This document shows positions 7,160 through 20,785 of a stretch of DNA of 42,444 bases, piece by piece; the stretch's first letter is position 1, and each line of letters opens with the position of its first letter. The position numbers and the translations under genes were made by a program. Source of the stretch: a virus; the IMG/VR virus record IMGVR_UViG_3300028602_000031; one strand, given 5' to 3'. The notes beneath the pieces are model-generated. The model saw nothing but the letters and a program-made list of their open reading frames with translations. It had not been told where the DNA came from and made no database searches.

Positions 7160-7330
7160 CTGAAAGAGGAAGGATAGTGACTACTCCCATCACTGAAGTG
7201 ACGGGCATCTTCCGATTTTACGGTCAGATTGTAATCCCAATCTGAGAATATTAATTGAAGCATTAAGATCACGGTCAATAGACAGACCACAGAAAGGACA
7301 GTTATGAGTTCTTTCTGATAGGTCTTTTTC
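7160..7330 (-). ncRNA. Predicted TnpB omega/reRNA (scaffold overlapping the tnpB 3' end, plus flank-derived guide TATCCTTCCTCTTTCAG)
   Basis: Known architecture of IS200/IS605 right ends; 5' boundary is a guess. Confidence 0.55.
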
Positions 7331-8411
7331 TACCAACATCCCACAACTTGAACACATTTTTGAGGTATTCTTAGGATCAACAAGAACCACTTTTCTACCA
7401 GCATTTTCAGCTTTGTAGGAAGTATAAGTTACAAGTTTACTCCAAGCTGCATCAAGAATGTGCTTTGCAAGATTGTGATTTTTTGTCATGTTCTTAATGT
7501 TAAGATCTTCAAAACAGATTATACCGTAATTATTAATGAGTTCTTTACTGAATTTTTGAGTAAAATCTTCTCTCTTGTTAGCAATCCTTTCATAGGCTCT
7601 ACACAACGTTTTAAGGCATTTCTGTCTTTCAGGAGTACCTTTTTCGGCTTTAGAAAGTTTTCTGTTAGCTCTTGCAAGTGCCTTTTCTTCTTGAATATAG
7701 AATCTAGGATTGGGAACATAAGTTCCATTCGATAATGTAGCAAAGGAGAGGATTCCAACATCAATACCTACTGACTTATCAGAAGGTTGAAGTGGTTGAT
7801 AAGTTTCAGCATCAGTAAGTATTGAAACAAACCATTTACCAGTTGAAGTTTTCCTGATAGTTAAGCGTTTAATATTTCCTTCAAGTGGTCTATGCAATTT
7901 TATTTTTATATCTCCGATTTTGGAGAGAGTTAACATATTGCTATTTAAGGAAAAACCAGATTGCAAGTAGGTAATACTGTCATACCAACCTTTACCTTTA
8001 AAACGGGGGTATCCTGCTTTTTCTCCGGCTTTAACTCTACGGAAAAAAGCTTGAAAAGCAAGATCAACGCGCATAGTCACATCTTGAAGTGTATGAGAAT
8101 GAACGGTTTTCAATTCTGGTTTATCTTTCTTCCAGATAGGAATCATCTTTTTAGAATCATAATAACTGATTCTTTTCTGTTCAGATTCCCATGCATTCTT
8201 TCTTAGTGCTAGAGTTTCATTATAGACCCATCTACAGAGTTCCAAAGTAGAGTTAAGCTTTGTAACTTGTGATTTTGTTGGATAGATTCTATAACGATTC
8301 ACTTTAGGCATAATAAATAATATAGTCATTTTACCTAAATAAAGGTTACTATATTGAAGTTGACGGCTGTATCCCGCCATTAAAATGACGGGGATTAGCC
8401 TTAGACGCTAC
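7177..8411 (-). mobile_element. IS200/IS605-family non-autonomous element (tnpB only)
   Basis: Right end with hairpin CCCATCAC-TGAA-GTGACGGG (7186-7205), ending ...GTAGTCAC on the minus strand; imperfect left-end hairpin 8371-8395; no tnpA; left boundary approximate. Confidence 0.85.
7190..8311 (-). CDS. tnpB: RNA-guided endonuclease TnpB
   Basis: N-terminal YRIYPTKSQ HTH; RuvC I GIDVG, RuvC II FEDL, CSSC...CPFC zinc finger, RuvC III DRDLNA all intact; start re-called to ATG 8311. Confidence 0.95.
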   Translation of the reverse strand: MPKVNRYRIYPTKSQVTKLNSTLELCRWVYNETLALRKNAWESEQKRISYYDSKKMIPIWKKDKPELKTVHSHTLQDVTMRVDLAFQAFFRRVKAGEKAGYPRFKGKGWYDSITYLQSGFSLNSNMLTLSKIGDIKIKLHRPLEGNIKRLTIRKTSTGKWFVSILTDAETYQPLQPSDKSVGIDVGILSFATLSNGTYVPNPRFYIQEEKALARANRKLSKAEKGTPERQKCLKTLCRAYERIANKREDFTQKFSKELINNYGIICFEDLNIKNMTKNHNLAKHILDAAWSKLVTYTSYKAENAGRKVVLVDPKNTSKMCSSCGMLVEKDLSERTHNCPFCGLSIDRDLNASINILRLGLQSDRKIGRCPSLQ

Positions 8412-8415
8412 TAAA

Positions 8416-9135
8416 TTATTCCGAACTCTCTTTCTCGTTAATCCCTATCCACTTAACTAACTAACATTCATCATGCAATCCAAACCACTGTGGATAAACA
8501 GTATTCGCATCTTCAAGGTAATCGAGAACTTCTATCCCGTTAAAAAAATCATCACTTGCAGTACAACCACCGCTTCCTTCTCCAATATACAAGATCTTTC
8601 CTTCCGGATTCAATTCTGTGAAAAGTTCCGCAGCTTCCCTAGCCATCGGAGATTCGTACATTGCCCAACATGTAAGCAGAAAATCGGCTTTGTATTTACG
8701 AATAGCACCCCTGAAATCAAGGTTTTCAACTGGATAATATGATTTCCAATGAAAACTATCTTTTTTATGCCATGAATAATCATCCGTTGATATTATATTG
8801 ACTCCAGCTTCATGGAGGTACTTTGCTACAAGTCCTGTACCGGCTCCTACTTCAAGAACTGTTTTATCTCCGATGACTTGTTTCATTGCTCTAGCCCATT
8901 CTAAAGTAGGAGTCACAAAACCAATAACGGATCTTGCAACACTGAAATATGAGAAAGCGTCCCGACGCCTAAGTAATTTTGTATCCACACTCTCAACAAG
9001 CCTTTCATTAAGATGGAAATATAGGAATGATTTAATTTCGTTAGAATTTGCCTCGAATGAATTATATGTATGTGGATATGTATGTGAATATCCATCGAAC
9101 TGATCCCATGCTTTTTTAATTTCAGTAAAGGTCAT
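8416..9135 (-). CDS. Class I SAM-dependent methyltransferase with a probable in-frame amber (TAG 8461-8463) read-through
   Basis: VLEVGAGTG motif I, TDDYSW, YIGEGSGGCTA; past the TAG the frame continues LVKWIGINEKESSE to TAA 8416-8418. Confidence 0.7.
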
Positions 9136-9137
9136 CC

Positions 9138-9593
9138 TTATTCGCCCCGCTTTACCCATTTGTCTTTCTTCCAATCAAAATGATGTTTTGTATCCATCAA
9201 GAATTCTAACCACAAACATTCCATGCTCTTGTTTTTGTACCATTTATAACCTCTCTCTTTTACATATGCAGTGAACTCTATCAGTATAAAAACATTCGAA
9301 GAATCACTTTCTTTTCGTATGGCGAGAGATTGAAGTTGTTTTTGATTTGGAAGAGGTCGCAACGTTTCTAAATTCTCTAAATAGGTATAACCAACTTCTC
9401 CAATGAATTTGGCGTGTATTATTCTGGGGTCACTCCATACATCAAACTCAACTACCATCAGTTCTTTTTCCCTTTTTAGAGAGAATGCTTTATCTCCAGC
9501 TTTCCATTCCCAATTTTCAAAGAAATTAGATGGGAGTGCGAGGATCATCTTTTTATAAAGTTCGTTCATAAAAATCACCAATTTGTTTCCCAA
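9138..9593 (-). CDS. Hypothetical protein
   Basis: 151 aa ORF in the operon; LRPLPNQKQLQ...CLWLEFLM pattern. Confidence 0.6.
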   Translation of the reverse strand: MGNKLVIFMNELYKKMILALPSNFFENWEWKAGDKAFSLKREKELMVVEFDVWSDPRIIHAKFIGEVGYTYLENLETLRPLPNQKQLQSLAIRKESDSSNVFILIEFTAYVKERGYKWYKNKSMECLWLEFLMDTKHHFDWKKDKWVKRGE

Positions 9594-17117: not shown

Positions 17118-17452
17118 TGGACGCAAAAGAGCAACATGCGTTTCTCACGAAAGAACAAGTGCGGGAAACGGAGAAGATTCAGGCATATGCGGATGAAAAA
17201 TTCGGAGAAGGAAAATACAAAGTTTTTCCTGCAAACCTGTTTAAAAAAGAAGTTGATCATTTCGCAGAGAATGTTCTGGAGTATGTAATAGATAGAGCGT
17301 CCAATGATAGTGAAATGAAGCACCAGAGAGTTCTTGGAGAAAAGGGATGCCTCTATAGATTGGAAATACTGGACGATCTAAGCAATCATAAAATATGGGA
17401 TCGTGCGGAGAAACAGGCAAGGAAAATCAAGAGGGAGAATGCACACTCTTAA
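17117..17452 (+). CDS. Hypothetical protein
   Basis: Start re-called to ATG 17117 (TGATG overlap). Confidence 0.6.
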   Translation: MDAKEQHAFLTKEQVRETEKIQAYADEKFGEGKYKVFPANLFKKEVDHFAENVLEYVIDRASNDSEMKHQRVLGEKGCLYRLEILDDLSNHKIWDRAEKQARKIKRENAHS

Positions 17453-17711
17453 ATCACTTCAGGAAATGGCTCTCGAAATGGCTACGATTAGAGGCTTTTC
17501 TAAGGACTCCCTTAAAGACAAATGCCTTGTCCTGATGGAAGAGGTAGGAGAAATTGCAAGAGCTATTCTGAGAGGGCGAGGCGATCCTAGAAAGGAAATT
17601 GTTGACGTTCTCGCAGTCTGTCTACTTATTGCTTATTTGTTAGGCATGGACGGTGATGAACTTGAAAAAGAGTTCATTGAAAAAGTTGAAAACGATAAAC
17701 TGAGGGTTTAA
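17439..17711 (+). CDS. mazG: MazG-like nucleotide pyrophosphohydrolase
   Basis: LMEEVGEIARAI...EIVDVL (ExxE...ExxD) all-alpha NTP-PPase motif. Confidence 0.8.
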   Translation: MHTLKSLQEMALEMATIRGFSKDSLKDKCLVLMEEVGEIARAILRGRGDPRKEIVDVLAVCLLIAYLLGMDGDELEKEFIEKVENDKLRV

Positions 17712-17712
17712 A

Positions 17713-17880
17713 ATGGTAGACAAATCAATTTTTTACGCCACTGTAAATAATGTCCCACCGGAACTGGAAGAACAAACCAATGACCTAGATAAATTAATTG
17801 ACGAATGCAGAAAATACATGAAAGAATGGGGAGTATCCTCCGGAACACTGCTATCAGATCTTGATTTAATATTGGAGTAA
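17713..17880 (+). CDS. Hypothetical protein (not in ORF track)
   Basis: 55 aa MVDKSIFYATVNNVPPELEE...; exactly fills the gap between mazG and the FTR gene. Confidence 0.55.
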   Translation: MVDKSIFYATVNNVPPELEEQTNDLDKLIDECRKYMKEWGVSSGTLLSDLDLILE

Positions 17881-17884
17881 TAAT

Positions 17885-18127
17885 ATGCCAGCGTTTGAAA
17901 AAACAACGGACTTGTATGATTATTTTCGGAGAAACGCCGTAAAGCTTGGGTGTAATCCCTGCTTTGACGACAAGATAGAAGAAATCGAGGAGATGAATAA
18001 AAAAGGAGAAGACGGAGAACCTGGGTGTCTCTGCACAGTTGTTTATGTCCCATGTCCCTGCCCAAAGGGGAAGAAGGACATCGTCGAACATGGAATATGT
18101 CACTGCGAGATTTTCAAGAAGGTGTGA
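17885..18127 (+). CDS. Ferredoxin:thioredoxin reductase catalytic-subunit-like protein
   Basis: CLC...CPC...CHC triad corresponding to the FTR CPC/CPC/CHC signature. Confidence 0.7.
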   Translation: MPAFEKTTDLYDYFRRNAVKLGCNPCFDDKIEEIEEMNKKGEDGEPGCLCTVVYVPCPCPKGKKDIVEHGICHCEIFKKV

Positions 18128-18131
18128 GAGA

Positions 18132-18863
18132 ATGAAAGTGATTTACGAACCGAAAGGCAGAGCAAAAGAGTACGCGGATCTCGCGGTAAACCTCTATAAC
18201 GGGTGTTCTCATGGATGTGAGTACTGCTATGCTCCTGCTGCAACAAGAAAGAACAGAGAAGATTTCTATAAGAACCCTGCCGCAAGAAAAGATCTGATCA
18301 GTAAACTGCTAGACGATCTTAAAGAAATGGAACCTACAATGGACGACAGAGAAATTCTAATGAGTTTTTCCTGTGATCCTTATCAGGTGTTGGATTTGTA
18401 TAAAGGAACGGCTAGACAAGCAATTGAGTGTTTTGTAGCATATAATAAGAAGTTCTCAATCTTGACAAAGGGAGGTAAACGCTCAGAAAGGGATTTTGAC
18501 CTGTTAGCTGAACATTCCGATCTTTGCCGGTATGGAGCTACCCTTGTATTCTGCAACGATGAATACTCTAAACAGTATGAGCCGAATGCTGCACCGACTT
18601 CTGAAAGAATAGAGAGCTTAAGGAAAGCTCATGAGCTTGGGATCAGAACATGGGTTTCGTTAGAACCTGCTTGGAGTTATGCAGATGTCCACGACTTGAT
18701 AATTAGGACTGCGGAATTTGTAGACGAATACAGGATTGGAATACTGAATTATCATCCACATGCAAAAGAAATTGATTGGAAATTGTTTAAGGAAGAAGTT
18801 GTGGAATTGTGCGAGTCCTTGAATGTAAATTACAAGTTGAAGAGAGATCTGGAAGTGTTGTAA
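18132..18863 (+). CDS. Radical SAM protein (spore-photoproduct-lyase-like family)
   Basis: GCSHGCEYCYA (CxxxCxxC), CDPYQ, ILTK, SLEP motifs; ATG 18132. Confidence 0.85.
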   Translation: MKVIYEPKGRAKEYADLAVNLYNGCSHGCEYCYAPAATRKNREDFYKNPAARKDLISKLLDDLKEMEPTMDDREILMSFSCDPYQVLDLYKGTARQAIECFVAYNKKFSILTKGGKRSERDFDLLAEHSDLCRYGATLVFCNDEYSKQYEPNAAPTSERIESLRKAHELGIRTWVSLEPAWSYADVHDLIIRTAEFVDEYRIGILNYHPHAKEIDWKLFKEEVVELCESLNVNYKLKRDLEVL

Positions 18864-19201
18864 TGAAAATCGAAGTGTATCTCTGTAATATGTGCCAGAA
18901 AAAAATCCCATGTATTCTACCAAAAAACGTAGGTGGAACAATCAAAGAACCATACAAGATAAAGCCCTGGAACTGGGAAGAAGAAATATGTTCATGCCCA
19001 TACGTAGAAGCTATGGCAGCAGACTTCAAGCTTACAGAAATTGAAGCTACCGAACTTATAAAATATTTTGCAAATCCCTGTGAAAACTATTTCCTGACTC
19101 CGATGTGTGATGCAAGGGGCGGTATATGCCCGAAAGAGTGCTACGGAAACATAGAGGTATGTATGCAGAACGTAGGCGTTCAGAGAAGCATTAGAAAATA
19201 A
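18863..19201 (+). CDS. Cys-rich hypothetical protein
   Basis: TAATG overlap at 18863; multiple Cys. Confidence 0.55.
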   Translation: MKIEVYLCNMCQKKIPCILPKNVGGTIKEPYKIKPWNWEEEICSCPYVEAMAADFKLTEIEATELIKYFANPCENYFLTPMCDARGGICPKECYGNIEVCMQNVGVQRSIRK

Positions 19202-19208
19202 AAGAGGT

Positions 19209-19553
19209 ATGAACATGCACGTATCAAGAGAAGTTTTTTCATTAAGAGTAAACCCCGAAATGTATATCGGAATGACGTGCCCCAACGTCAAACTCGAAAG
19301 CACGAAGACTCTAATTGAAAAATTAAGAGAGATTAATAAGAAAGATCCCGAATTCTGCTATATGTGTGAAAGGGATTGGTTTGGAAATGTTACATGGAAT
19401 TTTTCTTACTCGGTAAAAGAATGTTTTGAACACGCTAAACAGTTAATAATTGAAGACGCAAAAGAAGACAGAAGGCGTGATGGCATCCCAGATGATGATA
19501 TTTACGAGAAGGTAAGTATATTTAAAGACGAATGCATGTGCCCATTTTTATAA
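19209..19553 (+). CDS. Hypothetical protein
   Basis: 114 aa ORF with GAGGT SD. Confidence 0.55.
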   Translation: MNMHVSREVFSLRVNPEMYIGMTCPNVKLESTKTLIEKLREINKKDPEFCYMCERDWFGNVTWNFSYSVKECFEHAKQLIIEDAKEDRRRDGIPDDDIYEKVSIFKDECMCPFL

Positions 19554-19598
19554 AACATTAAAACCCACCAAAACACCACGAAAAAGAGGTACGAGAAC

Positions 19599-20129
19599 AT
19601 GAATATAATTTCAATAGAAGGACCAGACAGACTCGGAAAAACAACAATCTCAAAACTTTTAGCAGAAAGGTTAGGATACACCTACATTAAATTCCCTAAT
19701 GAAGATTATTACAGTGGGAAAATAATAAGACAAATTCTGAAGAGAGAATTACCTTTTGAACCTGCTTCTTTTCAAGCTCTCCAGATCCTAAATCGATTCG
19801 AAACATTTGAACATTTAGATCCTGACGGTGACTACATTTTTGACAGATATAAGCTCTCAGGCATCGTTTACGGACTTGCAGACGGGCTTCCTGAAGAATG
19901 GATAAGGGAAACTTGTAATTATCTTCCAGATGCGGATTATACAATTGTTCTGTATGGAATTCCTTACGGAGAGGATGACGATATTTACAGCGCAAAGCAG
20001 ATTGAAATTGCCTGGTTGTATTGTGAGGAAATTATAACATGGCAGTACCCTTCCGTCTACGTGAACGGGCAGACTGTAGAAGAATTGTATGCTGAAATCG
20101 TAGCTAAATTACCGGAGGAGTTTCTGTAA
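19599..20129 (+). CDS. tmk: Thymidylate-kinase-family dNMP kinase
   Basis: P-loop IEGPDRLGKTT, NRFE, FDRY motifs. Confidence 0.85.
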   Translation: MNIISIEGPDRLGKTTISKLLAERLGYTYIKFPNEDYYSGKIIRQILKRELPFEPASFQALQILNRFETFEHLDPDGDYIFDRYKLSGIVYGLADGLPEEWIRETCNYLPDADYTIVLYGIPYGEDDDIYSAKQIEIAWLYCEEIITWQYPSVYVNGQTVEELYAEIVAKLPEEFL

Positions 20130-20785
20130 TGCCTGTACCAGTAATGCCAAGGGTTCTGTATTGTAAATCAATTGTAGAAGCCACTTACAAATCTGTAAAT
20201 CTTATAATGAATGAAGGGAAAATCGGAAAAGACGAAAGAGGAGACAAAGTAAAATATTACAAACATCTGATAATTGTAATTCCTGTAGACGGTTGCACTG
20301 ACTCGGACGATAAATTAACTTCTCTGTGTGACGCTGCATTTGCTGAAAACCTTATTACAGGCAAACCATCGGGTTCCGGAATCCAGGCGCATGAATATAC
20401 ATACGGAGAAGAACTCCACTCTGACAACGGGTTAGAAAAGACGATTGACAAGTTGAAAGAGCATCCCGAAACAAGACGCGCTGTGATCCCCCTCTTCAAA
20501 ACAAAACATATCGACGGAAAAGAAGTTCCGTGTATGATAACAGTCGTTTTTGATATCGAATCTGATGAGGACGATGACTATCTGAACATTACTATTTTTG
20601 GAAGATCTAACGAGATGGCAATAGCCACGAAAAGCGATATTAAAGGATATGCGGAACTCGCTAAATATGTAGCAAGGAGACTCGGAATTAAAAACGGTAC
20701 TCTTTTACTCCATGATGTAAATGCCCATTGTAGAATAGGTTCTGATATAGATACGATAAAACGTATTCTCAGGGAGGGGTATTAA
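20129..20785 (+). CDS. Thymidylate synthase (ThyA)-fold protein, probably dCMP-directed (hydroxy)methylase
   Basis: YTYG, TRRAV, EVPC (Cys135), RSNE (Arg159) and His200 present; Asp170 at the position of E. coli ThyA Asn177. Confidence 0.8.
   Translation: MPVPVMPRVLYCKSIVEATYKSVNLIMNEGKIGKDERGDKVKYYKHLIIVIPVDGCTDSDDKLTSLCDAAFAENLITGKPSGSGIQAHEYTYGEELHSDNGLEKTIDKLKEHPETRRAVIPLFKTKHIDGKEVPCMITVVFDIESDEDDDYLNITIFGRSNEMAIATKSDIKGYAELAKYVARRLGIKNGTLLLHDVNAHCRIGSDIDTIKRILREGY

Follow-up and report, generated by a model that had tools for sequence, protein, structure and literature searches.

The stretch analysed here, called the window in the following, comprises 42,444 nt of IMGVR_UViG_3300028602_000031, a partial virus genome. 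With a GC content of 37%, tail-like genes and genes for a Holliday junction resolvase, a helicase and a primase-like protein, it derives from a tailed virus, whose host is very probably the methane-making archaeon Methanosarcina, since the TnpB of an IS605 element (7190-8380) is 91% identical to Methanosarcina proteins. The subject of this study is a cassette at 17439-20785 that consists of eight closely packed open reading frames (ORFs), all on the plus strand, and ends with a homologue of thymidylate synthase (TS) carrying an aspartate in its active site (Table 1). A first-pass annotation had assigned these genes to an archaeal virus and interpreted five of them (MazG-like, FTR-like, radical SAM, TMK-family kinase and ThyA-fold genes) as a pathway for modified cytosine resembling that of T4. 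All five genes lie on the plus strand and have profile matches, and the archaeal host, the Asp-type active site with intact catalytic residues and the avoidance of GGCC are supported as well. The gene list itself was incomplete, as three uncharacterised ORFs of 55, 112 and 114 aa had been omitted; for the last of these we found no homologue among the fetched loci either. The tight spacing fits co-transcription of the cassette. A sigma-70 promoter scan returned 14 matches against 13.3 expected, which is chance level for a model that is ill-suited to archaea.

In the synthase homologue of the window, Asp170 aligns to Asn177 of E. coli ThyA. Further changes are Glu162 at Asp169, Arg202 at Tyr209 and a glutamate at Leu143; Cys146, Arg126/127, Arg166, Ser167 and His207 of ThyA are kept as Cys135, Arg116/117, Arg159, Ser160 and His200. 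The kept catalytic residues, Asp170, Glu162 and Arg202 are invariant across 23 close homologues. The best profile match is the methanogen family TIGR03283, with a score of 98.6 bits that does not reach the curated cut-off of 174.55 bits. With methanogen TS of this family, for instance ORF59 of PhiF1 (30% identity), the enzyme shares the short scaffold and the acidic residue at the Leu143 position, but it differs from them in Asn177 to Asp, in Asp169 to Glu and in Tyr209 to Arg (His200-x-Arg202 instead of His-x-Tyr) and belongs to a separate clade. Its AlphaFold model (pLDDT 86.5) has the TS fold and matches AfhB (9iqc) with Z 20.4, MilA with Z 18.8, ThyA with Z 16-17 and T4 gp42 with Z 14.2. 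Aspartate at position 177 is well established as a determinant for dCMP (PMC13326640; PMC5175136), and the window synthase probably acts on dCMP as well, as far as its residues indicate; methylation of dCMP is predicted from Asp170 alone.

The top structural match, AfhB of HY126 (root-mean-square deviation 2.8 over 202 aligned residues), is one of the flavin-dependent 5-hydroxy-dCMP synthases (AfhB 9iqc/9iqu, RB69 gp48, LC53, Thanatos), which combine a short TS fold with Asp177 as the window enzyme does. An AfhB-like function was nevertheless rejected. The signature Asp169Asn of these synthases (PMC13326640), seen as Asn in Thanatos and LC53, is missing in the window enzyme with its Glu162, and their chemistry needs O2 (PMC13326640), which makes it unlikely in a methanogen. 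The acidic residue at the Leu143 position was likewise considered as a hydroxymethylase marker and rejected, since it is common to host-type Asn enzymes.

The Asp-type enzymes form a lineage of their own. Twenty-six members make up one clade apart from the host-type Asn enzymes (SH-aLRT 91, and 81 without the trait columns), and a profile search extended the set to further short enzymes of the Asp type, none of which has Tyr209. Their contexts are viral; where longer ones were fetched, they hold terminase, MCM, primase or integrase genes. A cellular origin was sought and not found: the only GTDB match, a contig of 9.8 kb from a Bacteroides metagenome-assembled genome, has gene families in common with the viral loci and is probably mis-binned. 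This Bacteroides genome (G002, with L026, L037 and L040) also holds other archaeal-type synthases. Small Nmad1/DUF6378-like ORFs with weak Pfam matches adjoin or lie near the Asp-type synthases of L009, L013, L017, L019, L027, L029 and L095-L097. The literature searched, with subscription journals outside its coverage, contained no description of this lineage, so that the synthase is apparently an undescribed enzyme variant within an ordinary-looking nucleotide cassette.

Since the whole clade has lost Tyr209, which binds the 3'-OH, its substrate might be no DNA precursor at all, such as CMP, a nucleotide substituted at the 3' position or one of defence signalling. The position is Arg, Lys or Ile in 26 of 26 members, Asp169 has become Glu in the close family of the window synthase, and both T4 gp42 and the CMP hydroxymethylase MilA keep the tyrosine (PMC5175136). 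However, the clamp for the 5'-phosphate and His207 are intact, and the residues that go with the ribose preference of MilA, Ala at Ser167 and Lys at Arg126' (PMC5175136), are absent from the window enzyme, which retains Ser160 and Arg116. As the gene moreover adjoins a dNMP kinase and nucleotide reductases, we consider such a substrate improbable.

The comparison with related viruses revealed that the synthase is exchanged beside the same neighbours. L057/G004 is a syntenic sister virus of the window with MazG, FTR-like and kinase genes in the same order and no radical SAM gene. Besides the two small ORFs listed in Table 1, it shares with the window the MazG (50% identity), the FTR-like protein (70%), the kinase (56%), the resolvase (53%) and the helicase (78%). 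Its synthase, in contrast, is Asn-type and only marginally similar to that of the window (BLASTP E 0.011). MazG, FTR-like and Asn-type synthase genes occur together in L087, too. The kinase family stands beside Asn-type synthases in L053/55, L054 and L057-L060, its Asp-type partners being found in the window, L001, L005, L007, L020, L052, L061 and L064. Along the kinase tree, the type of the partner synthase changes six times, at least four of these changes being forced by well-supported branches, and the partner types are no more clustered than shuffled labels (mean of 4.8 changes). Clustering of all ORFs from 19 Asp and six Asn loci leads to the same picture: the synthase alone separates the two groups, no locus holds both types, and no partner gene family is specific to the Asp loci. 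The Asp/Asn sister pairs represent a natural controlled comparison.

Table 1. Genes of the cassette in the window and Asn-type synthases of related loci
Feature	Position	Strand	Remarks
MazG-like	17439..17711	+	90 aa; PF03819 E 2e-5, above cut-off
55-aa ORF	17713..17880	+	75% identical at same place in sister G004/L057
FTR catalytic-subunit-like, small Fe-S/cysteine protein	17885..18127	+	80 aa; PF02943 E 0.025 alone
SPL/PA0069-like radical SAM	18132..18863	+	243 aa; PF04055 2e-12; NF033668 below cut-off
Cysteine-rich 112-aa ORF	18863..19201	+	45% identical, same place, in Asn-type sister G004 (L057)
114-aa ORF	19209..19553	+	no family match
TMK-family kinase	19599..20129	+	176 aa; PF02223 2e-13
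Short archaeal-type thymidylate-synthase homologue	20129..20785	+	218 aa; TIGR03283 3e-28, below cut-off
Asn-type synthases	L053:7522-8253, L054:7537-8304, L057:6528-7262, L058-L060, L087, L089		

Around the close Asp-type homologues the kinase and the FTR-like gene are frequent and MazG is rare (three of 19 Asp loci). The MazG of the window, a small single-domain protein resembling NTP pyrophosphatases, is closest to the archaeal SSO3215 type (nearest solved chain S. solfataricus SSO3215, 1vmg, E 5e-8), and its role would most likely be house-cleaning or control of the dUTP/dCTP pool. Relatives of the FTR-like protein reach PF02943 with E 2.5e-5 and retain the cysteine pattern. With nine of 19 Asp loci and three of six Asn loci, this gene is not tied to the Asp enzyme. 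Proteins resembling the FTR catalytic subunit recur in these Methanosarcina viruses, in one case (L045:9795-10379) fused to an uncharacterised N-terminal domain. The radical SAM gene is absent beside the synthase in all 26 loci of Asp homologues that were first fetched. It is missing between matching flanking genes in the syntenic G004, and the relative G001 has a 71% identical copy at a distance of 14 kb from its synthase; we therefore read it as a mobile insertion or passenger in the cassette. Its homologues occur in Bacteroides phages and bicaudaviruses.

Most relatives, of the Asp as well as the Asn type, have an ERCC4-like nuclease family after the synthase (e.g. L007:10927-11859), and the window carries a RecU/Hjc-like resolvase at this place. 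A methyltransferase-like ORF of the window (8461-9174) has weak matches to PF05219 and PF13489.

Because the window is a partial genome, the absence of a polymerase from it is meaningful only together with its relatives. G001 is complete (73 kb) and Asp-type, with a synthase and a kinase that are 60% and 58% identical to those of the window. Family searches of this genome found no PolB, MazG, dUTPase, dCMP deaminase or Dcd, and there is no glycosyltransferase among the 25 Pfam families listed for it. PF00136 is likewise missing from the complete Asn-type genome G006 and from four partial records, other polymerase families not having been searched singly. Deaminases of PF00383 or PF22769 were not detected in the virus records searched, and M. 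acetivorans, included as a search control, has Dcd and a PF00383-family protein. At L044:1023-9831, G001 encodes a VirB4/HerA-like ATPase, membrane proteins and a disaggregatase-repeat protein, an arrangement that resembles a conjugative module.

The kinase had been regarded as the counterpart of the T4 dNMP kinase gp1, a view that its sequence and fold do not support. It has no BLASTP similarity to gp1, and the motifs (P-loop, FP and DR), the TMK fold and the O4-binding arginine place it in the thymidylate kinase family. Its best sequence matches in the PDB are the fungal, human, Plasmodium and vaccinia TMKs, and its fold matches are TMKs with Z 18.4-21.3, other kinases reaching at most 15.1. 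Among the PDB entries, the thymidylate kinases of eukaryotes and poxviruses are nearer to it than those of bacteria and archaea. The Asn-Arg pair that reads O4 of thymine in human TMK is retained as N65-R66. Throughout the kinase family Gln62 takes the place of the base-stacking Phe; together with Gln59 it is invariant in the base pocket, and because of this replacement the specificity may be broad. The kinases of the window and L057 share an identical base-reading helix, and the Arg/Lys position in this helix does not follow the type of the synthase.

The viruses also avoid restriction sites. In the window, two GGCC sites are observed versus 37 expected, and CTGCAG, GGATCC, CTCGAG and GGTACC do not occur. 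Seven hexamers have an observed/expected ratio (O/E) of 0.31 in the Asp relatives (0.20 without G007), 0.16 in the Asn relatives and 1.02 in T4. As these hexamers were picked from the window itself, independent tests are provided by the relatives alone, with T4 as a single control of 49 kb from a different host. GGCC is absent from the four distant Asp loci L094-L097. Such a strong avoidance of C-containing sites argues against full protection of cytosine; partial modification or a legacy signal is compatible with it.

Taken together, these results make the pathway suggested by the first-pass annotation highly improbable. According to it, MazG would act as the dCTPase and the synthase would work with a dedicated kinase, with the radical SAM and FTR-like proteins providing hypermodification or reductant, so that dC would be replaced nearly completely, as by gp56 (dCTPase), gp42 (dCMP hydroxymethylase) and gp1 in the hydroxymethylcytosine pathway of T4. 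The TS fold, the catalytic Cys and the Asp at Asn177 are indeed common to gp42 and the window synthase, which has a kinase and a MazG-superfamily protein as near neighbours. However, the window synthase is only about 16% identical to gp42, has the short archaeal scaffold and has lost the Tyr209 that gp42 keeps, and the TMK-type kinase is partnered with Asn-type synthases as well. Since the same genes accompany an Asn-type synthase in the same order in the sister virus, MazG, FTR-like protein and kinase are no evidence for a cytosine pathway. The dCTPase candidate does not regularly accompany the synthase, the radical SAM gene reads as a mobile insertion, the complete G001 has neither MazG nor PolB, and the viruses, unlike T4, avoid restriction sites. 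Co-occurrence in related viruses, which had been suggested as a check, thus speaks against the pathway, and adjacency of MazG, kinase and Asp-type ThyA is insufficient alone to show one of the T4 kind.

We favour the interpretation, with a probability of about 0.42, that we are dealing with a variable cassette for the supply of pyrimidine nucleotides in tailed viruses of Methanosarcina, with an exchangeable synthase, in which the Asp enzyme would feed the dTTP pool. Genes for thymidylate synthase and TMK are commonplace in archaeal tailed viruses (PMC8651126), and distant Asp-type enzymes adjoin a trimeric dUTPase and NrdD/NrdG (L028) or a kinase and an ATP-cone reductase-like gene (L094). Starting from the observed gene content, residues, swapping and site avoidance, we infer substrate, product and a host deaminase step as follows. 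The kinase-plus-synthase slot holds either of two unrelated TS homologues, of the Asp or the Asn type. Since each takes the place of the other beside near-identical kinases and the remaining gene content is unchanged, both would most likely lead to one and the same end product, dTMP/dTTP; the proteins of the MazG, FTR-like and radical SAM genes would be accessory passengers. The likelier chemistry for the Asp enzyme, though rather improbable taken by itself, would be methylation of dCMP at C5 with the methylene-pterin of the host, after which a host enzyme would deaminate 5-methyl-dCMP or 5-methyl-dCTP in analogy to Xanthomonas phage Xp12. Direct methylation of dUMP by the remodelled active site is a quite unlikely alternative. 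The DNA of Xp12 contains 5-methylcytosine in full replacement of cytosine. According to PMC12088426, dTTP is made there from 5-methyl-dCTP, a precedent for methylating first and deaminating second, and dCMP deaminases accept 5-methyl-dCMP. Besides a dCMP methylase, Xp12 encodes its own 5-methyl-dCTP deaminase, unlike the viruses described here as far as their records were searched.

Several points weigh against a role in dTTP supply. To our knowledge, the characterised natural Asp-type enzymes (T4 gp42, MilA, AfhB/RB69 gp48) make modified cytosine that is used as such. As no deaminase is encoded by the viruses, the route needs a host enzyme with a putative activity on 5-methyl-dCMP or 5-methyl-dCTP, and the PF00383 family also includes deaminases not acting on dCMP. 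With the stacking Phe lost the kinase is maybe promiscuous, so that the swapped synthases could have different products. The Asn-type synthases form their own well-supported clade without the equivalents of the phosphate-binding Arg21 and Arg126' and may not be ordinary thymidylate synthases either. The Asn loci, six of which entered the gene-content test, were mostly found via the kinase. Finally, the Asp-type G007 (L078-L080) shows far weaker site avoidance than the close relatives (O/E 0.68), reflecting either a different host or real protection.

Some of these points would suit a partial modification of cytosine, which we regard as possible, if tentatively so. In this case, the Asp enzyme would make 5-methyl- or 5-hydroxymethyl-dCMP, a promiscuous kinase would phosphorylate it and the host polymerase would incorporate it for part of dC, with Asp and Asn enzymes as alleles for modified C and modified U/T that are swapped under defence pressure. 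All 26 members of the clade carry the dCMP determinant, along with co-varying changes of the active site, Gln59 and Gln62 are invariant in the kinase, and several Asp enzymes have ORFs of the MazG superfamily (Nmad1-like) at their flanks. Where swapping is frequent, site avoidance could persist as a legacy, and it is relaxed in G007. On the other hand, there is no Asp-specific partner gene, the complete G001 has neither dCTPase nor polymerase, and avoidance is alike in the Asp and Asn groups and extends to GGCC in L094-L097. Furthermore, L002 and L004 lack a kinase within 10 kb, and the Leu143 position gives no sign of hydroxymethylation. That two swappable synthase alleles and one promiscuous kinase put C5-modified cytosine or modified uracil into part of the DNA via the host polymerase appears doubtful to us. 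The literature searched (again with subscription journals outside its coverage) contained no report of an archaeal virus that modifies pyrimidines at the nucleotide level, and partial modification of cytosine would be new chemistry for these viruses.

The same holds for the thymidylate supply that we favour. Uracil in the template makes archaeal family B polymerases stall, and a thymidylate route free of dUMP would therefore be useful. If the Asp-type synthase indeed works in this way, its route to thymidylate would likewise represent new chemistry for archaeal viruses.

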